Assembly: GCA_964490125.1 (NCBI GenBank)
Contig: CAZBAJ010000006.1
Coordinates: forward strand, 1-60,144
Direction: 5' to 3'
Source of the DNA: an uncultured Candidatus Saccharibacteria bacterium
GTDB lineage: Bacteria > Patescibacteriota > WWE3 > UBA101185 > UBA10185
Length of the DNA: 60,144 nt
The notes under the pieces are model-generated. The model was not told the origin of the DNA and ran no database searches. It saw nothing but the letters and a program-made list of their open reading frames with translations. Shown here one piece after another: positions 3 to 44,013 of the stretch. Position 1 is the stretch's first letter, and each line of letters opens with the position of its first letter. The position numbers were made by a program, and so were the translations under genes.

Positions 3-3000
3 ACCATTACTCCCGCGTCAAATTTAATTATAAACAATGGTAGCGTTGGGATAGGAAACACCTCGCCGTCGTACGCACTTGATGTTGCTGGAACTGGTAA
101 TTTTACTGGTGACCTCCGCTTAACCGGAGCATTTTACGATACTTCCGCTTCTGCAGGTACTTCTGGTCAGTATCTTAAGTCCACCGCAACTGGAACTGCT
201 TGGGCAACACTTACCCCGGGTTCAGAGACCTTACCAACTGGTACAGAGGGTCAAACACTTTATTATAATGCCAACACCAGTCTGTGGACAGCCAGCTCCT
301 CATTATTTTATGACGATGTTACCAGTAGATTGGGTGTAGGCACCACGGCACCCGCCTACAAACTTGATGTCAACGGAGACATTAGGATAGCCTCGGGAAG
401 TAAGCTAATTGGCGCAACGCAAAGTTTTATTGACACCAACCGCCACGGCTTTTTAAACCAAACAGAAACCTCCATGTCGTTTGACGGTACAAAAATCTTT
501 ACATTAGCTGACGCCGGTTCTGGTTGGTCTTACTATCGCTCGGGAATTAAATACACAATAACTGGAAACAAAACCATTGACTTAACGACGGTTGATAATC
601 CTTTAGTTGACGGGACAACATACTATATTTATATTGACTCAACAACAGGAGCGTTGTCTGCCGCCAGCTCGTCCTGGACGCTAAATGATACAAAGGTTCC
701 TGTTGCCACAGTGCTTTGGAATAATACTTTAACGCCCAAATATCAGTTGGCAGAAGAAAGACACACGGTTCTAATTGACAGAAGGACACATTACTGGCAA
801 CACTTTTTGGTTGGCGCAAAAGCGGTAGTTGCTGGTGCAATTGACCCGGCGTCGTACGCGCTAAATACCGACACTAATGTGTCCAAAACCTTTTCCATTG
901 CGCAAACCACCTTTGCCGACGAAGACTTGGTGCAAACCTTGTCTGCGTTACCAGATCCCAACGGAACTGCAGAAGACTATGTGGTTTTTTATAGGACAGG
1001 AGCTTCTACTTGGGCTTGGAAAAACTCTAATATGCCTTTTGTTTACAATGTGGGCAACACTAACGACAGAATTCAGTACGACAATAACGGCACCATGACG
1101 GATTCTATCGCAAATCGTTGGTATAACTCTTATGTTTTATTCACCAATTTTCAGGGATCCGCAAGATATGTAGTTATTCCGGGGAGAAATGTCTTTACCT
1201 CTTTAGCCAACGCCCAAGCAGAAGCCCCTTCATCTTTTTCCTTTGCCGGTTTTCCGGTTCAAGAGGCCCAAATTGCCTACAGAATCACCTGGACAACAAC
1301 CAATTCAACTTCTCAAGGAAAATGCCGTTTGGCAGCAACTCCACAGTCAATTAACTTGTCTGCCATATCTACCGTTAGCTCCGGTTCCAGCGTAGATCAT
1401 AATAGTTTAGCAGGACTGCAAGGAGGCGCCTCAAATGAGTACTACCACCTGACCTCTGCTCAACAACTAGGTTTAACAACTGTTGGTGCTGGGTATGTTC
1501 CTTATGCTACATCAGAAGGCGTTTTGGGAAATTCTAGTATTTTTGAAACCGGAGGTAGCATTGGTATAGGCACCACATCGCCTGGAGAAAAGTTAGAAAT
1601 CGTTGGCAACCTTAAGTTCTCCGGCACGGATCCAAACGTGTCAACCACCACAGGTTTTGATTTTGACTTGGGCGACTCCGCAGGGTCATACAACTTTGAC
1701 ATTAGAAACTCCGGCGATGTCAATTTACTTTCCATAAACAGTTTAGGTGGACTAATTTTGGACGGAACAACGGGTTCCAGCGGAGTATTTAACTTTGCGC
1801 CAACTACCACAACCGACGCCTTTACTATAAATAAATCAGGCGCGGGTACGGGTGCGGTCTTTAGGGTAAATGACGCCGGGGCAGGGGACATTTCACCTTT
1901 TATTATTACCAGTACAGGTCTTGTGGGAATTGGAACTACAGCTCCCGGGAACCTTTTGGAAATTGTAGGTACCTCCAACCACTTGTCGCTAACCTATGAT
2001 GCCGACAATTACAATGTATTTAGCGTAGCTAGCGACGGCACTTTGTCGCACATTAATAACGGCACCACTGTGGCAACTTACAGCGAGTCCACCATTAATT
2101 TTAATGTCCCGTCCAGCTTTAATGTGGTGGGTGATGTTAACATGGCATACAACCTTGTAATGGAAAATCCGGTAAGTTCTGCTATTTCTTTTGCGGGGGC
2201 GGGGACTGTTGCAACTACAAGTCCAACTGATAATCTTAATTTAACCCTTTCTGCCGCTAATTTGGGGACGGTTTTTGTGGACGACACCTTAACGCTGTCC
2301 GGTGTTATCCAACCCGCAACGGATTCAACAAGCGCTATAAAATTCCAAAGCGCTTTGGGTGCAAACATTTTAAGTATTGACACCACAAACGGGTGGGTGG
2401 GAGTGGGGACAACAAGTCCCACAGCCAAACTAACCATCGCCCGTGATTTCACTGGTTCCGGGGTAACAGGTTACGGATTTAATGTCATAGCTACAGATTC
2501 CACAAACAACGCTAACACAGATTACGGAGTTTATAGTTCTTTGGCGCTAACCGGCAATGCCGCCAAAACAGGCGTGGGACTTTATTCGTCCCTGTCAACC
2601 GCGTCTACAACGGCAGACACGCTAATTGGTGCAGATATTACTACCTCTACTTCCGGTATTATCACAACAGGAACTAGAAGTATTTATGGAATAAGAAGTC
2701 AGCCCGCCTCTACGGGTGCCTCTACTGGCGGGACCACCAATGTGTATGGCGGTTATTTTAAAGCCGGGGGAACAGTAGGCACGGGCGGAACCATAAATTC
2801 CTACGGACTCTATGTTGCTAACGGGACCATGAACACTACAGGTACAACCAAGAACATTGGCCTATATGTAGAAAGTCCAACAGGAGCAACCACTAATTAC
2901 GCTGCCATTTTTGCTGGCGGTAATGTTGGTATAGGTACCGCCACACCACTGGCTTTGTTAGATGTTAACGGGGTAGGAGCTTTTGGACTAGGAACAGTAA

Positions 3001-4484
3001 GCGCGCCAGGTATAGCCTTTAGGACAGATTTGGATACCGGTCTTTGGTCTTCTGGCGACAACACTTTGAATTTATCGACTGGGGCAACAGAAGCTATGCG
3101 GATTTCCAGCGCAGGATTTGTGGGCATAGGTACCACGGCTCCAACCTATCCGCTTTCCGTAGGAGGGGATAGCGCCCTCATTGCTAACGACACCGGTAAC
3201 CTAACCATTACCCCTGCGTCAAACCTAATAATAAGTAGCGGTAGTATTGGAGTGGGTACAACCGCGCCGGGCGCAAAGTTAGAGGTAGTTGGCGGGGAGG
3301 TTAGGGTAGCAACCTTGGCAAGTGCCAACTACTATGTTTGTGTAGACGCAAATGGCGAGTTATTTGAAAGCGCCACCGCCTGTGCCGGCTCCGATATTAG
3401 GTTAAAGGAAAATATTAATCCGTTTGCCTCGGCGCTTGAGGGTGTAATGGCCCTTAACCCCATCACTTTTAATTGGAAGAATAAGCAAGAATCTGGTTCA
3501 CAGTTAGAAGTTGGTTTTATTGCGCAGGAGATGGAAAAAATTTTCCCTCAAGTCGTGCGCACTAATCCGGATGGCTTTAAGGGAATAAAGTACGATGTTT
3601 TCTCCGCGGTGCTTACCAAAGCCATTCAGGAACAAGAACTTAAAATTTCAGGAATGGACGACTTTATGATGCAAACTAACCAAACTTTGGAGGCTCTGTC
3701 TACCACCCAAGAGGAAAATTCAAGGCAAATTGCCCAAATTCAATCTTTGTTGGATGTATTGGGAATCCAAGACCCGTCCCAGTCAAGCGAGTCGTCAGAG
3801 TCCTCACAGTCCGTCGGACTTGCTGGCATCCTAAATGTCAATCTGCTAAACAGTCTACAAACTATGTATGACAATATTGTCCAGCTAGTAGAGGCTTTAG
3901 GACTTAAACAGGTGGATGGGGAGCTTGTAGTAGAAAGCCCCATGACCGTTTTAGGTGACGCAAGTTTTGCGGATGTTAATATTTCTGGCGATTTAATGGT
4001 CGGACTGCTAGAAGTAAATTCTTTGGAGAACTCTATAAATGTAATTGGACCTTCCTGTGTTGGCACAGCAAGTGAAGAAGACAAAGCGACATTAAACGAC
4101 GAGATATGTAAATCACAGACAATATATTTGCAAAAGAACCTAGCTGGAAACATTAACATGTTTAACGGCGCAATTGTATTTAGTCCTAATGGAAACATTA
4201 CCGCGGGAGAAATTGACGCTAAAAAACTCGTTGCCCAGGTATATGGAATAAATAGCATCGGTCAAAGCGTAGGGGAGGGGGTCATTCCTGCCGGGGAAAC
4301 CAATATCGTTATCACCTCGTCAACTGCCCAAAGCAATTATAAAGTGTTTGTAACGGCAACCTCTAACACGGGGGGCGTGGAACTGTTTGTTAAAGAAAAA
4401 TCGCAAGGGGATTTTGTGGTCGCGCTTTCTGGAATCTCCGCCACGGATATAAAGTTTGACTGGTGGGTTGTTCGAGTAGATTAA
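3..4484 (+). CDS. Giant repeat-rich surface/tail-fibre-like protein with C-terminal peptidase S74 intramolecular chaperone domain; 5' end lies outside the window
   Basis: The frame of ORF 330..4484 is open back to position 3. Many VGIGTTxP repeats; S74 motif SDIRLKENI...LNPITFNWK...VGFIAQEME, followed by a coiled coil. Confidence 0.85.
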   Translation, partial: TITPASNLIINNGSVGIGNTSPSYALDVAGTGNFTGDLRLTGAFYDTSASAGTSGQYLKSTATGTAWATLTPGSETLPTGTEGQTLYYNANTSLWTASSSLFYDDVTSRLGVGTTAPAYKLDVNGDIRIASGSKLIGATQSFIDTNRHGFLNQTETSMSFDGTKIFTLADAGSGWSYYRSGIKYTITGNKTIDLTTVDNPLVDGTTYYIYIDSTTGALSAASSSWTLNDTKVPVATVLWNNTLTPKYQLAEERHTVLIDRRTHYWQHFLVGAKAVVAGAIDPASYALNTDTNVSKTFSIAQTTFADEDLVQTLSALPDPNGTAEDYVVFYRTGASTWAWKNSNMPFVYNVGNTNDRIQYDNNGTMTDSIANRWYNSYVLFTNFQGSARYVVIPGRNVFTSLANAQAEAPSSFSFAGFPVQEAQIAYRITWTTTNSTSQGKCRLAATPQSINLSAISTVSSGSSVDHNSLAGLQGGASNEYYHLTSAQQLGLTTVGAGYVPYATSEGVLGNSSIFETGGSIGIGTTSPGEKLEIVGNLKFSGTDPNVSTTTGFDFDLGDSAGSYNFDIRNSGDVNLLSINSLGGLILDGTTGSSGVFNFAPTTTTDAFTINKSGAGTGAVFRVNDAGAGDISPFIITSTGLVGIGTTAPGNLLEIVGTSNHLSLTYDADNYNVFSVASDGTLSHINNGTTVATYSESTINFNVPSSFNVVGDVNMAYNLVMENPVSSAISFAGAGTVATTSPTDNLNLTLSAANLGTVFVDDTLTLSGVIQPATDSTSAIKFQSALGANILSIDTTNGWVGVGTTSPTAKLTIARDFTGSGVTGYGFNVIATDSTNNANTDYGVYSSLALTGNAAKTGVGLYSSLSTASTTADTLIGADITTSTSGIITTGTRSIYGIRSQPASTGASTGGTTNVYGGYFKAGGTVGTGGTINSYGLYVANGTMNTTGTTKNIGLYVESPTGATTNYAAIFAGGNVGIGTATPLALLDVNGVGAFGLGTVSAPGIAFRTDLDTGLWSSGDNTLNLSTGATEAMRISSAGFVGIGTTAPTYPLSVGGDSALIANDTGNLTITPASNLIISSGSIGVGTTAPGAKLEVVGGEVRVATLASANYYVCVDANGELFESATACAGSDIRLKENINPFASALEGVMALNPITFNWKNKQESGSQLEVGFIAQEMEKIFPQVVRTNPDGFKGIKYDVFSAVLTKAIQEQELKISGMDDFMMQTNQTLEALSTTQEENSRQIAQIQSLLDVLGIQDPSQSSESSESSQSVGLAGILNVNLLNSLQTMYDNIVQLVEALGLKQVDGELVVESPMTVLGDASFADVNISGDLMVGLLEVNSLENSINVIGPSCVGTASEEDKATLNDEICKSQTIYLQKNLAGNINMFNGAIVFSPNGNITAGEIDAKKLVAQVYGINSIGQSVGEGVIPAGETNIVITSSTAQSNYKVFVTATSNTGGVELFVKEKSQGDFVVALSGISATDIKFDWWVVRVD

Positions 4485-4512: not shown

Positions 4513-4695
4513 ATGGATAAAATAATCTTGACTAAAGGTGGCACCCCATTTGCTACGCTAAAAGCCTCCAGAGAAGAAAAAAGAAAGCTACTTGCAAACT
4601 GCGCCGGTGCTTGGGCTAATACAGAGCTAGATAGCGATAAGTTTTGGGCTAAACCGTTGGTCAGAAAGTCCAAGAAGGCTATACCTAAATTATAA
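4513..4695 (+). CDS. Short antitoxin (Phd/YefM-like, N-terminally reduced)
   Basis: 60 aa with an IILTKGGTPFA motif; its stop overlaps the start of the downstream PIN gene. Confidence 0.6.
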   Translation: MDKIILTKGGTPFATLKASREEKRKLLANCAGAWANTELDSDKFWAKPLVRKSKKAIPKL

Positions 4696-5144
4696 TGCTA
4701 AACCCGTATCTACTAGATACATCTATTATAGTGATGTGCTTGCGCAACAAGCTCTCATTTGATCATCTTTTGTCGACTTATGGGGGTAGCGACATAACAT
4801 CGTCCATGGTGTGCCTGGCGGAGTTGTATAGCGGTGTTTTTAAGTCAGCAAGAAAAGAAGAAAACGAGCAAAAAGTGCTGGAGTTTTTTAGTGGACTAGA
4901 TGAAGTCTTTGGATTAGATGTTACGGTTGTTAAAAAGTTTGGGGAGATAAAAAATCAACTAGAAAAAGCAGGTAACAACATAGAGGACTTTGATCTTTTG
5001 ATAGCGGCCACTTGTCTAGCACATGGTTGCGTTTTGATTACATTAAATACTAAGCATTTTGAACGGGTTCCAAACCTAGCCACGGTTACGCCAAAGTTAC
5101 CATCTTTATCTTATGCACAAATGACGAGGTTTGGTAGGGTTTAA
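4695..5144 (+). CDS. vapC: VapC-family PIN ribonuclease toxin
   Basis: YLLDTSII, SSMVCLAELYSG, DFDLLIAATCL, LITLNTKHF motifs. Confidence 0.9.
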   Translation: MLNPYLLDTSIIVMCLRNKLSFDHLLSTYGGSDITSSMVCLAELYSGVFKSARKEENEQKVLEFFSGLDEVFGLDVTVVKKFGEIKNQLEKAGNNIEDFDLLIAATCLAHGCVLITLNTKHFERVPNLATVTPKLPSLSYAQMTRFGRV

Positions 5145-5219: not shown

Positions 5220-6734
5220 ATGCCCGCTGGTAAAAAACTTGCCTTACTCACCTTACTAACAGCTTTTTCTTTAGCAACTTTCTGTGTCACAGCATTGGCA
5301 ATTAATACCAAGTTTAATGGCACGACGGGGAAGATACGGGCGATAGGGGAAACGGGGATGGTGGACAAAATAGGGGAGGTGGCAGGACTTGAAACCACCT
5401 CGATGGGTCAGGGCATTTTAGAAGACCAAGTGGCTTGGCAATATACCCAACAAACGCCAGATTACACCGCCTCTTTTGCCGTCACCCAGCAACAAACCAT
5501 AGTCAAACTCCAAAAAGCAAATTTTACGGCAATTTTTAGCCAAAATTTGCAAAACCCCACTCTCCAAAGGGTGTACGATAAGGACAGTCAAGATAATTAT
5601 GACAACCAAACCAATCAGACTGGTCAACTAGAAAAAATCCAAAAAACCCAACAAGTCCACCCAAAGTACATTTTTACCGATACTGTCACCAACACTCAAT
5701 ATGTCTACCACATAACGCCCCAAGGTCTAAAAGAAGACATTATTTTTTCAAGTCGGCCAACCGCGCTATTTTTACCGCTTACTGTGCAAGCGCCGGGTTT
5801 AATTATGCAGTTTGACGACGGGGGGAAGCCTGTTTTTTACGACTCTGCCATGCAGGAGCAATTCCATTTAGAAGCGCCTTGGGCAAAGGACGCTAAGGGT
5901 AGCCAAACCACCGCTTTGTTTTATGCCCAGGCAGAACCGTCAAAAGACCCTAGTGTTAATAACCTTTCTTTGGTATTAGATACCGCGTGGTTTGCCGACC
6001 CGGCTAGAGTCTACCCGGTAATAGTGGATCCCATTGTTTTTTTTAGGGGTATTAATTTGCGCGGGGTTAATGTTAACCGCATTCCTCCAACCACCTGTAC
6101 AGCTTATACCGGTTGCGGTGAGGGTTTTGATATTACCTGCGTTCACACTAAATATAACGGTGTGGCACCTGTGGCAAAAACCGTAATTTATAAAACAGTG
6201 CAATCAAATTTAACAGGTACCAATATGTGCTGGCTGGCTCAAAATTTAGGGGCTACAGATCAAGCAAGCTCTGCTACGGACAATGACGAAGACTCCGCCG
6301 GTTGGTACTTCCAGTTTAACCGCAAACAAGGGTTTAAACATACCACCACCAGAACTCCCGCCACCACTTGGATACCAAGCATAAGTGAAAGCGCAAATTG
6401 GGCGGATGCCCAAAACCCTTGCAAACTGGAACTGGGCACAGATTGGCGGTTGCCTACCTCCACGGAGTGGCAAACGGCTGACGCTAATGGTGAGGTTGGC
6501 GGATGGGATAATTATAACGAGACTTACGCGTCCCCCCTAAAACTCCATGCAACCGGCTACATCGATAGCTCCTCTGGAGCCCTCGCCAATCGCGGTAGCT
6601 TCGGCAGCTACTGGAGTAGTACCCAGCACTCTGCTACTAACGGGTACTACCTCAGCTTCGCCAGTGGCAACAGCAACCTGAGTGGCAACAGTAAGGCCCG
6701 CGGTTTTCCCGTCAGGTGCCTTAGGAATCTCTAA
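5220..6734 (+). CDS. DGR target protein 1: N-terminal signal/TM segment, shared scaffold domain, C-terminal FISUMP-like CLec domain containing VR1
   Basis: CWLAQNLGA...WRLPT...YWSST...PVRCL motifs; the last ~60 codons align to TR. Confidence 0.9.
   Translation: MPAGKKLALLTLLTAFSLATFCVTALAINTKFNGTTGKIRAIGETGMVDKIGEVAGLETTSMGQGILEDQVAWQYTQQTPDYTASFAVTQQQTIVKLQKANFTAIFSQNLQNPTLQRVYDKDSQDNYDNQTNQTGQLEKIQKTQQVHPKYIFTDTVTNTQYVYHITPQGLKEDIIFSSRPTALFLPLTVQAPGLIMQFDDGGKPVFYDSAMQEQFHLEAPWAKDAKGSQTTALFYAQAEPSKDPSVNNLSLVLDTAWFADPARVYPVIVDPIVFFRGINLRGVNVNRIPPTTCTAYTGCGEGFDITCVHTKYNGVAPVAKTVIYKTVQSNLTGTNMCWLAQNLGATDQASSATDNDEDSAGWYFQFNRKQGFKHTTTRTPATTWIPSISESANWADAQNPCKLELGTDWRLPTSTEWQTADANGEVGGWDNYNETYASPLKLHATGYIDSSSGALANRGSFGSYWSSTQHSATNGYYLSFASGNSNLSGNSKARGFPVRCLRNL
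6548..6722 (+). repeat. DGR variable repeat VR1
   Basis: Ungapped 175-bp alignment to TR 11761-11935: 15 mismatches at TR adenines plus 5 non-adenine mismatches confined to 6552-6598. Confidence 0.95.
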
Positions 6735-6806
6735 CATGGTTGGTAGCGTACCTCTTAGTCCCGCCAAAGGCGGGACCTTGATTTATTTGTCAATTTGACT
6801 ATTTTG
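6723..6806 (+). repeat. 84-bp tail after VR1 (IMH, stop codon, hairpin), identical to 10622-10705
   Basis: Base-for-base identity AGGAATCTCTAA...GACTATTTTG. Confidence 0.95.
6758..6776 (+). promoter_or_regulatory. DGR target-recognition hairpin after VR1
   Basis: GTCCCGCC-AAA-GGCGGGAC, perfect 8-bp stem 35 nt after the VR end; absent after TR. Confidence 0.85.
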
Positions 6807-6852
6807 AATTTTTTCTCTCCCCCCTTGAATTAGCCAACGGGCTTTAGAAGAG

Positions 6853-6928
6853 TGTAAGAGCGGAAGGCGTGTACCCCAAAATGCCAAAAATCAATGTTTA
6901 CAATTAAAATAAAACCCGCTTTTGGCGG
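6853..6928 (+). repeat. Direct repeat, left flank of NYN module
   Basis: 6853-6904 matches 7623-7674 at 49/52; similarity continues to 6928/7693 with a 5-nt indel. Confidence 0.9.
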
Positions 6929-6930
6929 AC
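6911..6930 (-). terminator. Probable intrinsic terminator of NYN gene
   Basis: Minus strand CCGC-CAAAA-GCGG-GTTTTATTTT immediately after the NYN stop. Confidence 0.5.
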
Positions 6931-6931
6931 T

Positions 6932-7537
6932 TTAAGGTGAGTATGACTTGACGACATCTGCATCGTCAATGAGTATATTTTTACTCGTGGTGTATATCAG
7001 ACCCTTGTTGGGAGAGCTCTTGAAACCCAGATATACCACTTGGATTCCTCGTGCAGTAGCTTCTTTAATAGCGGGCTGAAGGTCGGAATCAGAACTGCAG
7101 AGTATAACAGTGGTCACCGCTTTGTCGCAAGCCGCTAATACTAAATCTACAGCGATTTTCACATCCACACCTTTTTCATTAAAAACATAGTGTGGATTAT
7201 TAGCCGTTAATGCTTTGCCGACCGTACTGGCTCTAACACTACCGGAAATGATGTACTTGTAACCCTTTTTTTCCAAAGTAGTTTTTAAAATACGCTGGAT
7301 TTTAATTAACTCCATCGACTTGTTCTTAAATGCTGGATGGAGCTGGATTTTTGCAGAATAATACCTATGCTCTTTAATTTTATAGTTGGCTAAAACGGTG
7401 GTAAATAATTTTACGATATCGATATTCAAGATGGTTTTGCTTGATACTGTAATACCGGCACCTCTTAAAACGCCCGTTACTTTGTGTCTAAAATTTTCTC
7501 CGTCTATGAACAGGAAGTTTGTATTTGGTATGGTCAT
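6932..7537 (-). CDS. NYN/LabA-DUF88 (PIN-like) ribonuclease
   Basis: FIDGENF, EKGVDVKIAVDL, SSDSDLQPAI motifs. Confidence 0.9.
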   Translation of the reverse strand: MTIPNTNFLFIDGENFRHKVTGVLRGAGITVSSKTILNIDIVKLFTTVLANYKIKEHRYYSAKIQLHPAFKNKSMELIKIQRILKTTLEKKGYKYIISGSVRASTVGKALTANNPHYVFNEKGVDVKIAVDLVLAACDKAVTTVILCSSDSDLQPAIKEATARGIQVVYLGFKSSPNKGLIYTTSKNILIDDADVVKSYSP

Positions 7538-7544
7538 ATTACAT

Positions 7545-7584
7545 AAAACCCCGCCGAGCGTTAAGCATAGGCGGGGCGTTGATA
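7545..7584 (-). ncRNA. Putative short terminated leader/antitoxin RNA upstream of NYN
   Basis: Between the promoter and the ATG, minus strand CCCCGCC-14 nt-GGCGGGG followed by TTTT. Confidence 0.5.
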
Positions 7585-7589
7585 GCTAT

Positions 7590-7618
7590 CTTATATCCTA
7601 GTTTTATCTTAAAGTCAA
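7590..7618 (-). promoter_or_regulatory. sigma70 promoter of NYN module
   Basis: Minus strand TTGACT (7618-7613)-17 nt-TATAAG (7595-7590). Confidence 0.75.
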
Positions 7619-7622
7619 GTTT

Positions 7623-7693
7623 TGTAAGGGCGGAAGGTATGTACCCCAAAATGCCAAAAATCAATGTTTACAATCAAAACCCACTTTTGGAGG
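7623..7693 (+). repeat. Direct repeat, right flank of NYN module
   Basis: Copy of 6853-6928, period 770 bp. Confidence 0.9.
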
Positions 7694-10633
7694 TTTTTTG
7701 CTATACTTATGTTAATGCCTAAAGTCAAAATAAAATTTATAGGACTGGCAGTAGTAACTGCTTTAATTATTGCCTTGATGTTTGCGTTTGTAGGTGTAGG
7801 GCTTGGGCTAGTAGGTAAAAATTTGCCTTTTGCCCGGTTCAATACTATCTTTGGGTTTAAACAGGGCATTTTTGACGATCCAAGAAAAGATAAAAACCTT
7901 ACCACCGATCAAATAAATGCCTTGTCTCTCCTGTCGTCAAACTACTTACAAACAGAGGTTGTCTCCAGCGGTAATACAACAATAACCTTTGCCACCACAC
8001 AAGATGCCGTCCACACCCGCATTAAGGAACCTAACTTTGAGGGTCTATTTATAGAACCCATGAATCAGCCAAAAATGGAGGTTTTGGGAAGTCAGTCAGA
8101 AAATCAGGTGGACAATCGCGACGACAATCAAACGGACAAAAAATCAGTCAACCAGTATGTTTTTACGGACAGTCAAACGGGGACTAAATTTGTCTATACA
8201 CTAAAAGAAGACGAGTTGAAGCAGGACATTATATTGCCCCAAAGTCCTCAAGCCAGCCAGTTTACGGTTTATGTTGTAACAAAAGGTATGGAAGTTGATA
8301 TTGATCAAAAGGGCAGGGCGGTTTTTGCGGACGCGCAAGGGCTTGCGCGGTTTATTTTAATTGCGCCGTGGGCAAAAGACGCGGGCGGTAGTGAAACCAA
8401 AAAGCTTTCTTATAAACTAAACCAGGCAATTTTGTCGCAGGAAGACTTAGCAAGCAGTACGACTTTAGCGGATGGGGCGGGTGTCGCAACAAAAGCAACA
8501 AATATACCCAATACAGTTAAGGACGAGCAACTTGGCGGGGGATTTTCTAAATCGTTAGACACCCAAAATGTCCAAAAATTAGTGGCAGAAGGAAGTCAGC
8601 TGTTTAACCTTGAACTTGTGGTGGATGAAGAGTGGTTAAAAAGTCCACAAAGGGTTTATCCCATAACCATAGACCCCAGCGTGCAAATTGGTACACCGCT
8701 TAATTATTCCCAGCAGTCCAAATACTGTCCGCCCGGCAATACAGAAACAAATTGTGATGCGCTATACCAGCCCGCGCCACTAGCCGAGTATTATTTTGAC
8801 GACGCCACGGGTACTACAGTTAAGGACTCTACCGCCAACGGTTATACGGGCACTTTTACGGGTAGCGGAACCGGTGGTACTACATGGACACGCCAGGGCA
8901 AAATTAACTTTGCCGGGCTTTTTAACGGCACAGACGACTTTGTGGATGTAGGCACAGGTCCTACTGGCATAAAAAGCGTGGGTTTTTGGGTGTATCCCGC
9001 CACCACCACGGAATATTTTGTAGACTTAAACGGCTCCGCTTATATTTGGGCAAACGCGGGCACGCTAACGGCAACAGGCTTTACCAGCCCGACTGTTTAT
9101 ATTAACGGCGTTAAAGCAACAACCATTGAGGCAAACAAGTGGCAGTATGTTGCGGTAACTTCTGCCACCGCTGTGGACGCCACAGATTTAGATTTAGGAC
9201 GACTAGAAGGCACGGATTATTTTGCCGGCAGACTTGACCACGCAAGGTTTTATAACTATGTAAGGACGCCAGCGCAGGTAGCGTGGGATTTTAACGCCGG
9301 CGCGCCTGTAACTTGGTACAAATTTAATGAAAACACAGGTACTGCTATTGGCGACTGGGGCGTTGGGGGGGATGGTTACCGTGGTAATAACTTAACTTTA
9401 ACCGTGGGAGCCGGGGGAACTTATGATACCGCAACCCAAGTTTGGGCAAACGGCAATCCGGGTAAAATTGCCATCTCTATGGATTTAGACGGCACAGACG
9501 ACTACGCTTCTACCGCCAATGTGGCACTGCTTGCTTCCAATTCTACTACTTACACTAATTTATCTTGGGGGGCGTGGGTTAAACCTAGGATAACCGTTAC
9601 CCGTACAATAATCCATAAAAATAATGAGTTTAGGTTAAGGCTAACGGATGTTTCTGTGCCATCTTGTCAAATATACGCAAGTAGCGCATGGCAGACGGGG
9701 GCGGTTTCCGGTGGCGTAATTCCAACAAATTCATGGTCACACATATTATGCGCTTACGACGGGGCAAATATAAAAGTGTATGTTAACGGGGTCTTGCGTG
9801 GTACACAGCCGTTAACAAACGCGGTAACTTCTACCAGCGCTACTGCCATAAATGTAGGACGGGACAGCGGTGGTAGCGAGTATTTTAGTGGGGCAATTGA
9901 TGAGGCCCGCGTGTACTCATACGCGTTAACACCTATCCAAGCCAAAACTGCTAAAAACGATGGCATTGTAGCCTATGGGCGCGCCCCCGTTACCGCGGAA
10001 CTTCCACAAAGTTTTATTTGTGGCAAACCCATTACTGTTCAACATGTGGCTAGTAACGGCGTTGCCCCGGTAGATAAAACCGTAAGTTACGGTACAGTGC
10101 TTACGGGTATTGGCGGTACGGGTGACAAATGCTGGATTACCCAAAATTTAGGGGCTACTAACCAAGCAAGCACGGTTAGTGACGCTACGGAGGCGTCCGC
10201 AGGGTGGTACTGGCAGTTTAACCGCAAGCAGGGCTACAAGCACGACGGTACTACCAGAACACCAGCTACTGCCTGGAATGCCACCGAGGATAACACTTAT
10301 ACGGGCTGGGACCCGGCAAAAGATCCATGCGCTTTAGAATTAGGTGCGGGTTGGAGGTTACCCACTTCCGCGGAGTGGACTGTAGCAGATGTTCCGTGGA
10401 CAACTTGGCAAACTCCCGGGCCCTGGGATTTACCATTAAGAATTCATGCAGCCGGCTACCTCGATAGCTCCTCTGGAGCCCTTACCTATCGTGGTACCTT
10501 CGGCTCCTACTGGAGTAGTACCCAGTCCTCTGCTACTAACGGGTACCGCCTCCGCTTCGGCAGTGGCTACAGCACCCTGGATTTCTTCAGTAAGGCCAAC
10601 GGTTTGCCCGTCAGGTGCCTTAGGAATCTCTAA
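7664..10633 (+). CDS. DGR target protein 2: TM anchor, shared scaffold, LamG/ConA-like domains, C-terminal FISUMP-like CLec domain with VR2; true start probably ATG 7715
   Basis: LamG-like motifs (WQYVAVT, FAGRLDHARFYNY, WSHILCAYDG, FSGAIDEARVYSYAL); C-terminus aligns to TR; TATACT box 7 nt before ATG 7715. Confidence 0.9.
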   Translation: MFTIKTHFWRFFAILMLMPKVKIKFIGLAVVTALIIALMFAFVGVGLGLVGKNLPFARFNTIFGFKQGIFDDPRKDKNLTTDQINALSLLSSNYLQTEVVSSGNTTITFATTQDAVHTRIKEPNFEGLFIEPMNQPKMEVLGSQSENQVDNRDDNQTDKKSVNQYVFTDSQTGTKFVYTLKEDELKQDIILPQSPQASQFTVYVVTKGMEVDIDQKGRAVFADAQGLARFILIAPWAKDAGGSETKKLSYKLNQAILSQEDLASSTTLADGAGVATKATNIPNTVKDEQLGGGFSKSLDTQNVQKLVAEGSQLFNLELVVDEEWLKSPQRVYPITIDPSVQIGTPLNYSQQSKYCPPGNTETNCDALYQPAPLAEYYFDDATGTTVKDSTANGYTGTFTGSGTGGTTWTRQGKINFAGLFNGTDDFVDVGTGPTGIKSVGFWVYPATTTEYFVDLNGSAYIWANAGTLTATGFTSPTVYINGVKATTIEANKWQYVAVTSATAVDATDLDLGRLEGTDYFAGRLDHARFYNYVRTPAQVAWDFNAGAPVTWYKFNENTGTAIGDWGVGGDGYRGNNLTLTVGAGGTYDTATQVWANGNPGKIAISMDLDGTDDYASTANVALLASNSTTYTNLSWGAWVKPRITVTRTIIHKNNEFRLRLTDVSVPSCQIYASSAWQTGAVSGGVIPTNSWSHILCAYDGANIKVYVNGVLRGTQPLTNAVTSTSATAINVGRDSGGSEYFSGAIDEARVYSYALTPIQAKTAKNDGIVAYGRAPVTAELPQSFICGKPITVQHVASNGVAPVDKTVSYGTVLTGIGGTGDKCWITQNLGATNQASTVSDATEASAGWYWQFNRKQGYKHDGTTRTPATAWNATEDNTYTGWDPAKDPCALELGAGWRLPTSAEWTVADVPWTTWQTPGPWDLPLRIHAAGYLDSSSGALTYRGTFGSYWSSTQSSATNGYRLRFGSGYSTLDFFSKANGLPVRCLRNL
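10447..10621 (+). repeat. DGR variable repeat VR2
   Basis: Ungapped 175-bp alignment to TR: 21 mismatches at TR adenines (all in AAY codons) and one T>G. Confidence 0.97.
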
Positions 10634-10705
10634 CATGGTTGGTAGCGTACCTCTTAGTCCCGCCAAAGGCGGGACCTTGATTTATTTGTCAATTTGACTA
10701 TTTTG
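10622..10705 (+). repeat. 84-bp tail after VR2, identical to 6723-6806
   Basis: Base-for-base identity. Confidence 0.95.
10657..10675 (+). promoter_or_regulatory. DGR target-recognition hairpin after VR2
   Basis: GTCCCGCC-AAA-GGCGGGAC. Confidence 0.85.
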
Positions 10706-10768
10706 TTTTTTTCCCCTACAATGCCCGCGGTTAGAGATAAACGCTAGAGCTCGCGTAACCACGGTTAC
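10694..10768 (+). repeat. 75-bp direct repeat (promoter plus leader hairpin), left flank of DUF3800 module
   Basis: 73/75 identical to 11545-11619; contains TTGACT-17 nt-TACAAT and GTAACC-AC-GGTTAC. Confidence 0.92.
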
Positions 10769-10794
10769 ATTTAACTGATGCCCCAAAAGTCACC

Positions 10795-11445
10795 ATGGAA
10801 AATGCCACAAAACCTAAAAGAATTTATATATTCCTTGACGAATCCGGCACCCTTCCCGATCCCAAAGATACCGTAGTTATTGTTGCTGCGGTGGGAACAG
10901 TTCAACCACAGCAACTATCTAGGGTAACCACTAAGACCAGAAGCCACTTACAAAAAGGTAAAAATAAGTCATCGGAAATTAAATTTTATAATGCTGGGGA
11001 TAAAACTCGCATTACCTTTCTTAAAGAACTTATGGAAAAAGACATCCAACTGTTTACTTTAACTATTGAAAAGCCGGGTCAAAGTATACTCGATACACCA
11101 GAAAACTTTGCTCTTTTATGTTGGCTTCTTTTAGAAGAGTGTTTTTTATTTTACGGTCAAGAAAATTACGAGGTAGTTTTTGACAAACACTTTCACAAGA
11201 AAACAGACAGAGAGGTTTTTGATGCTGGGCTTATGGAGTTAATCGGTAGAAAGCTCTCTATCATCCATGCGGATAGTGTCAATGACACGCGGGTAAATAC
11301 TGCCGATATGGTGGCAGGTAGCATTCTATACTATAGAACCGGGAAAAATAAACAGTTTTACGAGATGATTAAAGAAAAAATTATTAGCGAAAAAGTTTTG
11401 CACTGGAAAGTGGCAAAGAAAAGTCTATTTAGGTACGGAAAGTAA
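10795..11445 (+). CDS. DUF3800 domain protein (putative nuclease)
   Basis: N-terminal IFLDESG and C-terminal DS...TADMVAGSI motifs. Confidence 0.8.
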   Translation: MENATKPKRIYIFLDESGTLPDPKDTVVIVAAVGTVQPQQLSRVTTKTRSHLQKGKNKSSEIKFYNAGDKTRITFLKELMEKDIQLFTLTIEKPGQSILDTPENFALLCWLLLEECFLFYGQENYEVVFDKHFHKKTDREVFDAGLMELIGRKLSIIHADSVNDTRVNTADMVAGSILYYRTGKNKQFYEMIKEKIISEKVLHWKVAKKSLFRYGK

Positions 11446-11492
11446 CAAAATCTCGTCGAACCGATGCAAGCATCCATCCAAACGAGATAAGT
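11446..11492 (-). ncRNA. Putative small structured RNA convergent on the DUF3800 gene
   Basis: ATCTCGT/ACGAGAT 7-bp stem (11450-11488) enclosing GATGC-AA-GCATC; T4 tract follows on the minus strand; own promoter upstream. Confidence 0.6.
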
Positions 11493-11498
11493 GTGATA

Positions 11499-11527
11499 AT
11501 TCTATCAAGTGGATACATTAAAGTCAA
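11499..11527 (-). promoter_or_regulatory. sigma70 promoter for the DUF3800-adjacent sRNA
   Basis: Minus strand TTGACT (11527-11522)-17 nt-TAGAAT (11504-11499). Confidence 0.75.
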
Positions 11528-11544
11528 ATTTTAGTCTACACTCC

Positions 11545-11619
11545 TTGACTATTTTGTTTTTTTCTCCTACAATGCCCGCGGTTATAGATAAACGCTAGAG
11601 CTCGCGTAACCACGGTTAC
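11545..11619 (+). repeat. 75-bp direct repeat, right flank of DUF3800; contains the promoter of the TR-avd-RT transcript
   Basis: TTGACT (11545)-17 nt-TACAAT (11568-11573); 73/75 identical to 10694-10768. Confidence 0.92.
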
Positions 11620-11760
11620 GCTTGGAGAGCGTGTTAGAGTGTGGTTACCCACCCCGCTTTAGCGGGGTTAAAAAAGAAGACTACGCGTCTGGAAACTTAC
11701 CCGTAGTCTCGCAAAATTTGGTGCAACAGCCAAACATTAGTGGTGACTTTAGCGCTAGGT

Positions 11761-11935
11761 TGCAGCCGGCTACCTCAATAGCTCCTCTGGAGCCCTTACC
11801 AATCGTGGTACCAACGGCAACTACTGGAGTAGTACCCAGAACTCTGCTACTAACGGGTACAACCTCAACTTCAACAGTGGCAACAGCAACCTGAATAACA
11901 ACAGTAAGGCCAACGGTTTTCCCGTCAGGTGCCTT
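11761..11935 (+). repeat. DGR template repeat TR
   Basis: 49 adenines and 15 AAY codons in the VR frame; in-frame TAG directly upstream (non-coding); 3' end GGAGACTCTAA differs from VR AGGAATCTCTAA (IMH*/IMH). Confidence 0.97.
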
Positions 11936-12020
11936 GGAGACTCTAAGTCTTTAGCCCCTGCCTCCTGTCCAAGTCCTACCAAATTCTGTCCACCAAAATA
12001 TTATTATTAACTAAAAGCTT

Positions 12021-12404
12021 ATGGCACTATATACAGCCTTACCCGTCTATAAAAGAACCTACCAACTATTAATGGAGCTAATTACCACCTGCGCGCTTTT
12101 GCCCAGGCTGTACAAGCATACTTTTGGTGAACGCATTCAGGAGGAAGCCATAGAAATGGTCCTTGATATTTACAAATCCAACTCTTCTTACAGCAAGGTG
12201 GACTATATTGGCAAAGCCCGTGAGCATGTAGAAACCTTGCGCCTGCTTATAAGGCTTTTGCACGACACCAAGAAGATCACCCAAAAGCGCATGATTTACC
12301 TAAATACTTATATAGAGGACATTAGTAAGCAGTTAACGGGTTGGCAAAAAAGTAGTGGGACTATAAAGCCGTCCGATTTACCGGACTCGTTATCTACAAA
12401 TTAA
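12021..12404 (+). CDS. avd: Avd-like four-helix-bundle DGR accessory protein
   Basis: LPVYK...LPRLYKHTFGERI...LRLLIRLL...SKQLTGW pattern; located between TR and RT. Confidence 0.88.
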   Translation: MALYTALPVYKRTYQLLMELITTCALLPRLYKHTFGERIQEEAIEMVLDIYKSNSSYSKVDYIGKAREHVETLRLLIRLLHDTKKITQKRMIYLNTYIEDISKQLTGWQKSSGTIKPSDLPDSLSTN

Positions 12405-12412
12405 GACCAAAT

Positions 12413-13800
12413 ATGTCAAATATCGACAGACATACCAATCTAACCAACCACGCCAACCATACGCATATGCCTAATATGCCTACTAACAAGTTTGCTAATA
12501 CACCTAATACATCCAATACATCCGATACACCCAATTCAACCGCTTCTGGAGATCCCGCGGATTCTCTCATAAACGATCTTTTTACCGCGTACTATTGCGC
12601 CCGCAAAAACAAACGCAACACTTTTAATCAGCTAAAGTTTGAGTACGACTATGAAAGTAATTTGTTTAAACTTTACCGGCTTATTTTAAGTCGTACCTAT
12701 AAACCCTTGCCGGAAATTGCTTTTATTGTAAATAAGCCCGTAAAGCGGGAAATTTTTGCCGCGGATTTTAGAGACAGAGTCGTCCACCACCTGATATTTA
12801 ATTGTTTAAACCCTATTTTAGAAAAGTATTTTATTAACGACTGTTATTCTTGTCGGATAGGGAAGGGGACCTCTTACGGAATTAAACGCGCAGTTAAGCA
12901 TATGCGGGCGTCATCAAATAATTATACGGAGGATTGCTATGTTCTAAAGTTGGATATTCAGGGTTATTTTATGAGTATAAATAAGACTATTTTGTATGGG
13001 GCGGTTAAGGGTTATTTGGCTAAAGAAAAGGCTAAAAGGGGTGTTTTACCGTTTGACGAGGATTTGGTGGACTTTTTGCTAAAGGTGATTATTTTTAACG
13101 ATCCCACCAAAAATTGCCGATTTAAGGGTTGGCCACAGGACTGGTGCGGTCTACCAAAGTCCAAGAGCTTGTTTTATGCCGAGCCATGTTGCGGTTTGCC
13201 TATTGGTAATTTAACCAGTCAGCTGTTTGGCAATGTTTATTTAACAGGGTTTGACCATTTTGTTAAGCGAAATTTAGCCATTAACTATTACGGTCGGTAT
13301 GTGGACGACTTTGTTTTAATGCATACGGACGAGCAGTATTTAAATTCGCTTATACCCGTAATGTCTAGTTTTTTAGTGTCGGTTTAAAACTTACCTTGCA
13401 TCCTCATAAGGTTTATTTTCAACATTATGCCAGAGGACTAAAGTTTTTAGGCGTTATTATTAAGCCTGGCAGAATTTATATTGGGTCACGGGTTAAGGGG
13501 AACTTTTACCTCGCTATTATGGAGCAAAATAGGGTTTTAGATCAGCCGGGTTTGTGTCGGATCGAGTTTTCCCGTCAAGAGGAGTTTTCTTCACAATCGT
13601 TAGTTTTTAAGCAACGCAAGGATTGTAACACGGTTAATGTTGTTGCTCCTTCCGTGACGGAAATAAAGGGTTTTATTAGCGTCATGAATTCTTACCTAGG
13701 GTTGATGAAACACTATCAAACCTATAAATTGTGTCGTAAGTTTGTGCTTAAAAACCTAGACCCCTGTTGGTGGGATTATGTTTACTTAAAACCTTTGTAA
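12413..13800 (+). pseudogene. DGR reverse transcriptase split by one -1 frameshift (ORFs 12413-13387 and 13369-13800 in the -1 frame); ~462 aa if joined
   Basis: RDRVVHH, LKLDIQGYF, GLPIGNLTSQLFGN and YVDD in the first ORF; LTLHPHK...GLKFLG and NSYLGLMKH in the second. Confidence 0.9.
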
Positions 13801-14022
13801 GAGTGGGATGCGTCTACCCCAGAACGAGATAACATTACCAAACCTCCAAAATATCCAGTAAAGTAACCTTTAACGATCTGCGCACACCGGCTGGATAGAT
13901 GTTGTAAGATTAAAACCCTACACTTCCCGTATTTAAGGTAGAAACCACAAAGAACCCTCTGCGGATCTTCTCTTGAATGTCCTTCGAGTCCTTATGCCGA
14001 TAACTCTTAGCTAGGGTCGTCT

Positions 14023-14900
14023 TAGATATTAATTAGATGCCACCTAAATAGAGGTAAAGTTTTGCAACTGATCTTTTGTTTATGCAGAAGAATAAAATAT
14101 GCCCCAAAGGGCACATATTTAAACGAACTAAGTCCCGTATTCCGTCAATTTAAGATTGTTACTAGAGCAAATAAAGTATGACAAATGCTTGTTAGTTCAC
14201 TTATAAAAATACGCGAACTATTTCCGTCCTGTAATAACAACAAAACTCACATAATGTTAAAAAATAAGTGAACTATTTTGGGAGCCTGGTTTTAAGGTTG
14301 TCAAGATAACCTAAAAACACAGACACATAAAAACATATTCAAACACCCAAACAAACATCTAAATACAAAAACCTCCACCCAGCCACCCAAGATAAACAAA
14401 CACTCATATAAATACATACATACATACATACATACATACATACATACATACATACATACATACATAAACAGACAGATTATTAGACGGGTAATAAATAAGT
14501 AAATACAAAAATACAAACTAACCCAAACACCCAACAGCATAAACAACAAAAACCAAAATTAAATTAGAAAACTAAAACACCAAAACTAAAACACCTAAAA
14601 ATATAACTATTACTGCCAATATTAAACACTCCACCGCCGTGACCGTGATAACAGCCACCGTAGCCTATGATATTTAAGAACTAGGGTAGTTCGTTAATTA
14701 TTTTAGAAAACTAGGTATTTGCTTTAACAACAGCTTAAAAATAGTTCGCAAATAAATATAACTGAACAATGTCACAAATGTCATACAGTTAACGCCGTAG
14801 TAAAAGCCTTAAATCTATAAAAAGCAGTTTATTGTTCGTTTAAATATAGGGTCTAAGACCTAATAAAAAAAGAACCTGCGACGACAAAAAATACTATAAT
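14023..14900 (-). repeat. Long non-coding repeat element, copy A (inverted relative to B and C)
   Basis: Both arms match 16393-17255 in reverse complement; 14-bp inverted repeat 14115-14128/14834-14847; seven TAGTTC/GAACTA boxes. Confidence 0.88.
14413..14464 (+). repeat. (TACA)13 microsatellite
   Basis: 13 perfect tetramer units counted. Confidence 0.97.
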
Positions 14901-14950
14901 ATCCAGCGCGAAGGGTATAACATGTAAGTTGATTTTGCTAAAATAACCCT

Positions 14951-16392: not shown

Positions 16393-17255
16393 TAGATAGT
16401 ATTGTTCGTCATCTTAGGTTCTTTTTGACTAGGTCATAGACCCCATATTTAAACGAACAATAAACTACTTTTATTAAATTTAAGGCTTTTACTACGGCGT
16501 AAACTTTATGACATTTGTAACATTGTTCGGTTATATTTTTTTTGCGAACTATTTTTAAGCTGTTGTTAAAGCGAATACCTAGTTTTCTAAAATAATTAGT
16601 GAACTACCCTAGTTCGTAAATATCACAGGCTACGGTGGCTATAATTACGGCTCTACAGGCATGCTTAACTTTCTTGGGTATTATTGTACAGTCTTGGTAA
16701 TAATAAGTTGTCTCGGTGTCTGGGTGCCTAAATGTGTTTGGATATGTATTTATTTAGGTTTTTGTTGTATTTGAGGGTTTCAGTAAGTACTCGTTTGTTT
16801 ATGTATTTAATTGTTATAGTAGCAATGTATTAATTTAAGTTTTGTTTGTACTGGGTGTTTGGGCAGAGATATTGCTATTTAGGTGTTTGAGTATGTATTT
16901 ATGTGTCAGCGTTTTTAAGTTGTATTGACAGCCTTAAAACTATACTCCCGACATAGTTCACTTATTTTTTAATGTCATGGGGATTTTGTTGTTATTGCAG
17001 GAAGGAAGTAGTTCGCGTATTTTAATAAGTGAACTAACGGATGATTGTCATACTTTATTTATTGTAGTAACAACTTTAGATTAACAAAACATGGCTATTA
17101 GTTCGTTTAAATACCTGCCTTTTGGGACATACTTTGTTCTTTTGCTTAAACAAAAGATCAGTTGCAAAACCTTACCCCTATTTAGGTGACAAATAATAGT
17201 ATCTAAAAAAGGCAGCTAAAAAAATGCCGTTTAGACGACATCAAATTAATATCTA
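16393..17255 (+). repeat. Long non-coding repeat element, copy B
   Basis: 13-bp perfect inverted repeat 16446-16458/17101-17113; outer 10/11 inverted repeat 16393-16403/17195-17205; seven TAGTTC/GAACTA boxes. Confidence 0.88.
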
Positions 17256-43863: not shown

Positions 43864-44013
43864 ATGCTAAGAAGATCTCCAAGCGTAAAACTAACGCCTG
43901 AAAAAATCCTTAAGGGTCAAAAAGCCCTAGGGGAAATCAATGTAATTAACCGTGGCAAATCCAAATTGGATGATCAAACTATACTTGATTGGATCAGAGA
44001 GGGTAGGAGATGA
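43864..44013 (+). CDS. 49-aa hypothetical protein coupled to prfA, not in the ORF track
   Basis: [49 protein letters not shown]; ATGA overlap with the prfA start. Confidence 0.5.

Follow-up and report, generated by a model that had tools for sequence, protein, structure and literature searches.

A two-target diversity-generating retroelement on a Patescibacteria contig, with a conserved −1 frame change in its reverse transcriptase gene

A stretch of 60,144 nt (contig CAZBAJ010000006.1 of assembly GCA_964490125.1, termed here the window) harbors, at positions 5220-13800, a diversity-generating retroelement (DGR) in which a template repeat (TR), an avd accessory gene and a reverse transcriptase (RT) gene are combined with two target genes, each of which ends in a variable repeat (VR). 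The locus is almost certainly a true DGR of canonical type, with two targets of the DUF1566/FISUMP class, within a genome of the candidate phyla radiation (CPR). Two-target, DUF1566-type and CPR DGRs have all been documented already; the unexpected feature here is a conserved frame change that interrupts the RT open reading frame (ORF) and that is shared with two relatives of 96% and 78% RT identity. Both halves of the interrupted gene are, by sequence comparison, under purifying selection, and the VRs follow the TR of their own lineage. Taken as a whole, the locus is likely to be best explained as a chromosomal DGR with a recoded RT.

Judging from its genes, the host of the DGR is a Patescibacteria (CPR) chromosome and not a phage. 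The window encodes fmt, def, dprA, topA, rpsB, proS, dnaX, cysS, ychF, a release factor, an intein-containing dnaB, efp, tRNAs and rpmG, and the best named relatives of its TopA belong to 'Patescibacteria group bacterium' (73-76% identity), followed by candidate division WWE3 (56-59%).

Adenine-specific repeats and their target genes

Three repeats that were found without prior assumptions (6538-6818, 10437-10717 and 11751-12031) align without gaps and contain the two VRs and the TR. These, the target genes and the avd gene are located as follows:

5220-6734, + strand: target gene 1 (504 aa), with an N-terminal hydrophobic anchor or signal, a common N-terminal domain and a C-terminal FISUMP/DUF1566 domain
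6548-6722, + strand: VR1 (VR_A), with 20 mismatches to the TR, 15 at TR adenines and 5 at other positions
7664-10633, + strand: target gene 2 (989 aa in its longest ORF), with a transmembrane anchor, the common N-terminal domain, a Laminin_G_3 insert and a C-terminal FISUMP-like domain
10447-10621, + strand: VR2 (VR_B), with 22 mismatches to the TR, 21 at TR adenines and 1 elsewhere
11761-11935, + strand: TR (175 nt), with 49 adenines and 15 AAY codons in the target frame
12021-12404, + strand: avd accessory gene (127 aa; PF22296 bAvd at 48.8 bits, cut-off 40)

The elements are thus arranged as target 1-VR1, target 2-VR2 and promoter-leader-TR-avd-RT, with intervening sequence before and after the second target. 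Mismatches between VR and TR are concentrated at TR adenines (hypergeometric P = 1e-12 for VR2 and 4e-6 for VR1). Nearly all of these adenines (47 of 49) occupy codon position 1 or 2 of the target frame, as does every adenine that is substituted within a VR, and 15 of 59 codons specify a different amino acid in each VR. The sole non-adenine mismatch of VR2 is T>G at 11920 (in TR coordinates); those of VR1 are G>A at 11765, C>A at 11774, T>C at 11797, T>C at 11806 and C>G at 11811. Non-adenine substitutions have been reported to be frequent in CPR DGRs (PMC5758913). The VRs form the last ~59 codons of the target ORFs, whose stops lie at 6734 and 10633, and a search of both strands of the 60-kb window found no further VR-like copy.

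The two targets share 53% identity across their C-terminal ~250 aa and 27% across the N-terminal domain, the Laminin_G_3 region being additional in target 2. The true start of target 2 is probably ATG 7709 or 7715, because the upstream segment 7623-7679 is one copy of a repeat whose other copy is non-coding. In each target strong hydrophobicity is confined to a single segment at the N-terminus, which is consistent with a signal or anchor and with an extracellular remainder. As in many homologues, the C-terminal domain weakly matches both Lcl_C (DUF1566) and Fib_succ_major/TIGR02145. An AlphaFold (AF2) model built from a 121-homologue alignment has a mean confidence (pLDDT) of 95.5 and supersedes one built from 35 sequences (pLDDT 47.6). 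The best Foldseek matches of this model are phage FISUMP proteins (E = 1e-5) and DUF1566 proteins, followed by the C-terminal domain of Legionella Lcl (E = 4e-3) and then by a series of C-type lectin-like proteins, with TM-scores of only 0.3-0.4; a sequence-profile search of the PDB adds a marginal Lcl match (E = 0.06). The variable domain can thus be assigned with good confidence to the FISUMP/DUF1566 family, and the model suggests, with moderate confidence, a fold of the C-type-lectin-like class. Many relatives of the target domain come from metagenome-assembled genomes (MAGs) of Bacteroidota and Omnitrophota.

An initial annotation of this DNA had given the same counts for the TR and for both VRs, had placed the VRs at the C-termini of two paralogous, membrane-anchored targets with C-type lectin domains and had noted that the same hairpin follows each VR; all of this agrees with the recount, the identities, the single hydrophobic segments, the fold matches of the model and the flanks described below. 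It had also suggested host attachment as the role of the variable proteins, which would fit a CPR host.

The conserved frame change in the reverse transcriptase gene

The RT gene comprises two parts in different frames, which meet at a heptamer:

12413-13387, + strand: zero-frame part of the RT gene (324 aa), with fingers and palm, IGNLTSQ and YVDD, ending in a TAA three codons past the heptamer
13369-13375, + strand: T_TTT_TTA heptamer, which fits X_XXY_YYZ when read in the zero frame and is identical in the relatives L002 and L003
13375-13800, + strand: −1-frame part of the RT gene (141 aa), with the LHPxK block and the thumb, open and conserved in L002 and L003

The SQ dipeptide within motif 4 is a hallmark of DGR RTs (PMC3521204), and the criterion used here for a DGR RT is a motif 4 of the form [LIV]GxxxSQ together with YxDD. 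The assignment rests on these motifs and on a match to the PDB: the best solved relative of the merged RT is the RT of Bordetella phage BPP-1 (bRT; 8ub7, E = 4.5e-27), and the alignment passes through the junction of the two parts. The RT also matches RVT_1 (31.2 bits, cut-off 29.6), and Avd matches the NCBIfam model NF033474 DivGenRetAVD with E = 2.6e-17 at 63 bits, under the cut-off of 80. The adenine-specific mismatches, the bAvd match above its Pfam cut-off and an RT nearest to bRT thus bear out the DGR identity that was initially proposed. The gene order TR-avd-RT (the RT gene spanning 12413-13800) is likewise confirmed. The structural claims of that annotation all hold; it had overlooked the break in the RT frame at 13369-13387.

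At this break, the zero frame ends at a TAA (13385-13387) and the remaining 141 codons lie in the −1 frame, which is itself closed upstream by a TAG (13366-13368); the two frames overlap only at 13369-13385, and the heptamer stands at the start of this overlap. Both AGTTTTTTA and the frame change recur identically in L002 (a Logan assembly of SRR8925812, 96% RT identity; 1570-1590) and in L003 (GCA_023261265.1, 78% RT identity; 1744-1764), which are independent assemblies with diverged flanks; conservation of the site is seen in just two independent lineages. A −1 shift at the heptamer yields ...SSFL-SVGLKLTLHPHK..., which aligns without indels to unsplit relatives of ~60% identity (for example, to ...SNFL-FSNLNLVLHPKK... 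of L004) and which retains their conserved F-L.

Between the window and L003, the N-terminal part of the RT shows a ratio of nonsynonymous to synonymous substitution rates (dN/dS) of 0.14 with a dS of 1.33. The C-terminal part remains open over 141 and 151 codons, respectively, as did none of 5000 shuffled sequences, and its conserved blocks have dN values of 0.22-0.35 with dS saturated. Stops are absent from it, whereas each of the remaining frames has 6-13 (for the window, 13 and 11). Comparison of the window with L002 gives dN/dS values of 0.17 (N-terminal part) and 0.26 (C-terminal part). By these measures both RT halves are under purifying selection and, since they are constrained across diverged lineages, the gene does not have the look of one dead since before those lineages split. 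Hence a break that is conserved under such selection is read as recoding rather than as loss, and the RT is probably expressed in this way.

Among the ways to restore the frame, unstimulated, low-level −1 slippage of the ribosome is favored because it keeps the conserved Leu, because the register is exact and because a run of six T (T6) is found in all three assemblies. That the frame is restored specifically by ribosomal −1 frameshifting is a tentative reading, judged somewhat short of an even chance. The release-factor gene at 44010, in which the classical prfB +1 site was sought as a sign of recoding, shows no such site. Literature searches turned up no description of recoding in a DGR RT.

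An RT scan of genome contigs returned only ~40-62% relatives. The nearest unsplit ones (~60% identity; L004-L008 and L010 among the scan matches) come from MAGs of Bacteroidota and Omnitrophota; judging from such similarities, this type of DGR may have passed between phyla or may belong to a mixed-phylum clade. A search with the C-terminal part of the RT against 1.8 billion representatives found many short proteins that begin at the junction, which is also how fragments at contig ends look. One candidate for a further split RT, from a Bacteroidetes MAG (L008, 62% identity), was rejected: it is broken elsewhere (2363-2450, at LIP* and then in the −1 frame) and has YVDN rather than YVDD, the break being probably due to decay or to an assembly error unconnected with the heptamer.

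Homing history, mechanism and rival explanations

At its start, the contig of L003 carries the final 98 nt of a VR, whose ten mismatches to the L003 TR are without exception at adenines (P = 2e-6). Over these 98 positions the TRs of the window and of L003 differ at 17, and at 12 of the 17 neither TR has an A. At every one of these 12 sites the L003 VR has the L003 base and both window VRs have the window base. Because the VRs in this way track their own TR at 12/12 sites, they have been rewritten after the lineages diverged and, by parsimony, after the shared frameshift. These patterns make it likely that homing continued once the RT frameshift had arisen.

Comparison with L002, whose TR differs from that of the window at 5 positions, bears on the non-adenine mismatches of VR1, which the initial annotation had counted correctly and left unexplained. 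Three of the five (11797 C, 11806 C and 11811 G) are the allele of the L002 TR; at the two differing positions toward the 3' end VR1 has the window allele, and VR2 has the window allele. The apparent errors of VR1 therefore largely document the history of the TR: the 5' part of VR1 was either last written from a TR of the L002 type or imported from a strain with such a TR, and its 3' part, like the whole of VR2, reflects the present TR. Such a mosaic is consistent with partial-length rewriting or with recombination, and it fits the variable 5' boundary of homing that has been described for multi-target DGRs (PMC5758913). The mismatches at 11765 and 11774, at the extreme 5' end, may lie outside the converted tract of VR1. 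As to which TR allele is ancestral, that of the window or that of the L002 type, L003 is too diverged an outgroup to tell.

Homing would involve sequences that flank the repeats:

6723-6806, + strand: 3' flank of VR1, with a region resembling an initiation of mutagenic homing (IMH) site, the stop codon, a hairpin (6758-6776), a T-rich tail and a TTGACT box
10622-10705, + strand: 3' flank of VR2, of the same sequence as that of VR1, with its hairpin at 10657-10675
11545-11573, + strand: promoter-like TTGACT-17-TACAAT upstream of the TR, in the second copy of a 75-nt repeat (first copy at 10694-10768)
11574-11760, + strand: leader of the predicted TR transcript, in part conserved in L003
11936-12020, + strand: spacer between TR and avd, whose blocks GCCTTGGAGACTCTA and CCTGCCTCCTGTCCA are invariant in the window, L001, L002 and L003

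The 84 nt after the two VRs, which include the last five codons and the stop of the targets, are identical despite diverged coding regions upstream. Within them GTCCCGCC-AAA-GGCGGGAC can form an 8-bp stem with 7 GC pairs, followed by the T-rich tail; the sequence 3' of the TR cannot fold into this hairpin. A comparable hairpin (GTCCGCC-GTA-GGCGGAC) lies downstream of the L003 VR. A part for these hairpins in homing is suggested by analogy with phage DGRs, in which homing requires a hairpin with a GC stem of 7-10 bp and a 4-nt GRNA loop, located 4-34 bp downstream of the VR (PMC3240598). In L003 a homologous promoter is located directly between the VR hairpin and the TR leader. A stem-loop within the leader (11651-11668; L003 231-250), followed by a run of A, is maintained in both lineages by compensatory changes and may belong to the functional RNA of TR-first DGRs. 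The spacer is a candidate for the IMH*/priming region and, by analogy with BPP-1, conserved RNA elements of both leader and spacer are candidates for positioning Avd and RT.

Taken together, these features suggest the following mechanism. A transcript starting from 11545-11573 would carry leader, TR, spacer, avd and RT; a complex of Avd and RT would reverse-transcribe the TR, misincorporating opposite adenines; and the resulting cDNA, directed by the common 84-nt flank with its IMH-like region and GC hairpin, would take the place of the 3' end in one or the other target gene. Randomization could thereby reach up to 15 AAY codons, and 49 adenine positions overall, in the C-terminal FISUMP/DUF1566 domain, diversifying two paralogous, N-terminally anchored extracytoplasmic proteins whose ligand specificity would probably vary as a result. 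Production of full-length RT would depend on a move into the −1 frame at T_TTT_TTA (13369-13375), most likely by −1 slippage of the ribosome or, alternatively, by insertion of one U through slippage on the T tract, which would have the same effect; the frame change probably holds the dosage of RT low. It is possible, if still doubtful, that there is a small clade of Patescibacteria in which the DGR RT is made only via a programmed −1 frameshift at U_UUU_UUA, at the boundary of palm and thumb.

The T tract might instead serve as a length switch, with full-length RT produced only from templates with seven T (T7), arising either by phase variation of the DNA, which would act in a minority of cells, or by addition of a U by RNA polymerase. 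T7 does restore the RT frame (...SSFFSVGLK...), the site is not followed by a stimulatory RNA structure, selection clearly still acts on the RT, and homopolymers are hot spots for indels, which could explain why two lineages have the site in common. Nevertheless, the tract is T6 in all three independent assemblies, six T are few for efficient DNA or transcriptional slippage, and the T7 product has Phe in place of the Leu of the F-L that is conserved in all unsplit relatives and that the −1 product keeps. A length switch is thus considered rather unlikely. So, to a greater degree, is the notion that the DGR is a decaying relic, whose RT became a pseudogene through a 1-nt deletion and whose VR/TR pattern is a fossil. 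The RT ORF is indeed broken, frameshifted DGR RTs are taken in surveys as recent inactivations (PMC3521204), and VR1 has its five non-adenine mismatches and is identical in a second contig (see below); but the break is common to lineages whose RTs have a dS > 1.3, with both halves open and a dN/dS of about 0.14-0.26, so that decay would mean that each lineage had recently and independently lost the same base. Moreover, the VRs follow their own diverged TR at all 12 non-adenine sites and otherwise mismatch it at adenines only, and VR2 has just one non-adenine mismatch.

In each of the three contigs gene callers predict a pair of ORFs, as would be expected if the RT consisted of two separate polypeptides, that is, a 324-aa fingers-palm protein and a thumb protein of ~134 aa that reinitiates downstream. 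However, the first possible starts of the second ORF differ in place (TTG 13396 in the window, TTG 1815 in L003), lack a Shine-Dalgarno (SD)-like sequence before them and would forfeit residues (LKLTLHPHK; LHPRKIYFQHYQKGL) that are conserved upstream in the −1 frame, which renders this arrangement highly improbable. Finally, the repeats could be regarded as paralogous duplications homogenized by gene conversion with no involvement of a retroelement, given that the targets are paralogous and share an identical 84-nt 3' flank. Yet mismatches fall predominantly where the non-coding copy has an adenine (P = 1e-12), this copy adjoins avd and a DGR-type RT, and the same architecture and adenine bias are found in L003; the probability left to gene conversion alone is negligible, the adenine-specific asymmetry having effectively refuted it.

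Several observations weigh against a DGR with a recoded RT, or against parts of that reading. No stimulatory RNA structure was detected after the heptamer: the folds of the 65 nt just downstream do not exceed shuffled sequences in stability (z-scores of +0.15, +1.74 and +0.44), and a 105-nt stretch scores −1.69. No SD-like element upstream of the heptamer is common to the contigs, and the AT-rich window has 18 copies of TTTTTTA on its + strand. A second DGR RT, as well as remote VRs, may lie elsewhere in the genome, outside the 60-kb window. The hairpin after the VRs has a stem within the phage limits, but its AAA loop has 3 nt and departs from the GRNA consensus, its distance from the VR end is 35 nt, and it also scores as an intrinsic terminator. 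Pfam and NCBIfam matches of the target domain all fall under the curated cut-offs, and for target 1 a protein search gave no recorded relative with more than ~60% identity. VR1, with its five non-adenine mismatches, may lack a recent full rewriting. The only other contig that covers VR1 (L013, from SRR11845628, found through a look-up of the PIN protein) contains its 5' two-thirds, and the first ~116 nt of the VR match the window without a difference; it probably represents the same population as the window. Metagenome DNA scans with A-to-N patterns derived from the TR gave no match. Exact look-ups of the neighboring NYN and DUF3800 proteins likewise gave none.

Surroundings of the element and comparison with known systems

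Single-gene cassettes bounded by direct repeats are found on both sides of target 2. A minus-strand NYN-domain gene (6932-7537), which lies between the two target genes, is surrounded by a 57-nt direct repeat (6853-6909 and 7623-7679, 93% identical), the second copy of which forms the upstream region of target 2. The same pattern is seen for a DUF3800 gene (flanked region 10795-11445), which is surrounded by the 75-nt direct repeat (10694-10768 and 11545-11619, 97% identical) containing the TTGACT-17-TACAAT promoter-like site and the start of the leader. As L003 has VR, hairpin, promoter, leader and TR in succession without a DUF3800 gene, this cassette appears to have come to lie inside the promoter/leader region of the window DGR through duplication.

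Upstream of the DGR, a 1384-aa protein (330-4484), in which GIGTTAP-like motifs recur, resembles tail fibers and has an intramolecular-chaperone domain (Peptidase_S74); the region after it (4513-5144) contains a small ORF and a PIN-domain gene with the appearance of a toxin-antitoxin pair. Downstream, ~1.1 kb of non-coding, A/C-rich sequence (13801-14905), with an (ATAC)n microsatellite at about 14408-14466, separates the RT from a glycosyltransferase gene; this stretch is missing in L002, in which 80 nt separate the two genes. A 1.5-kb segment with the glycosyltransferase gene, tRNA-Trp and rpmG lies between inverted repeats of 79 and 31 nt (14792-14897 and 16396-16500; 90% and 84% complementary) and could be invertible or formerly mobile. 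At 48808-51444 the replicative helicase DnaB is split by an intein with a LAGLIDADG homing-endonuclease domain. An Rfam scan of the window matched tRNAs only.

The DGR adds a well-resolved case of targeted hypermutation of surface lectin-like proteins in the CPR, whose members are thought to live attached to other cells, so that variable ligand binding is plausibly central to their lifestyle. Surveys and annotation pipelines drop DGRs with a broken RT as inactive; here the broken RT is conserved and selected and the VRs track the TR. If the heptamer is a true recoding site, it would constitute a built-in throttle on a mutagenic enzyme, setting the rate at which surface proteins are hypermutated, and some DGRs catalogued as 'dead' may need a second look. 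With one promoter, leader, TR, avd, RT and two identically flanked targets, the locus also offers a compact test system for the RNAs of TR-first DGRs.

Programmed −1 frameshifting at X_XXY_YYZ is familiar from HIV-1 gag-pol, where the heptamer is U_UUU_UUA, and, in bacteria, from dnaX and insertion sequence elements. The site in the window resembles these in its identical heptamer, in its correct register, in its conservation among diverged relatives and in a downstream frame that encodes the rest of a polymerase; it differs in that neither a downstream hairpin or pseudoknot nor a conserved upstream SD-like stimulator was found.

Among DGRs, two-target cassettes make up ~13%, and CPR DGRs are well documented (PMC5758913; PMC8144416). 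Wu et al. (2018) described 'category d' or CLec2 targets, which have weak, mixed signatures of DUF1566, DUF823 or Fib_succ_major and are typified by LdtA (PMC5758913). The targets described here conform to this type: as in the LdtA DGR of Legionella pneumophila, a surface-anchored protein with weak, mixed DUF1566/Fib_succ_major matches carries the VR at its C-terminus, Avd and RT are both present, and mutagenesis is adenine-specific. Unlike the Legionella element, the DGR in the window has two targets in its cassette, the order TR-avd-RT and an RT split by a −1 frame change, and its targets bear an N-terminal hydrophobic anchor in a CPR cell rather than being outer-membrane lipoproteins.

With the prototype, that of Bordetella phage BPP-1 (mtd-VR, avd, TR, brt), the element shares an Avd homologue, a VR that forms the 3' end of the target, an RT whose nearest solved relative is bRT and a GC-rich 8-bp hairpin that is present after the VR and absent after the TR (Guo et al. 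2011, PMC3240598). It differs from BPP-1 in being cellular rather than phage-borne, in having FISUMP-type targets rather than Mtd, in placing the TR before avd, in the loop (AAA, 3 nt, rather than GAAA) and position (35 nt from the VR end) of its hairpin, and in requiring a frame change for its RT.

DGRs of CPR and DPANN genomes are known at least from a reference cited in PMC5758913 (its ref. 23), and Roux et al. (2021) distinguished a CPR-restricted DGR clade 2 (PMC8144416). Unlike CPR DGRs, the element has its nearest unsplit RT relatives, and most relatives of its target domain, in MAGs of Bacteroidota and Omnitrophota; like the CPR/DPANN elements, it has a Patescibacteria host, a chromosomal location, predicted surface targets and non-adenine substitutions.

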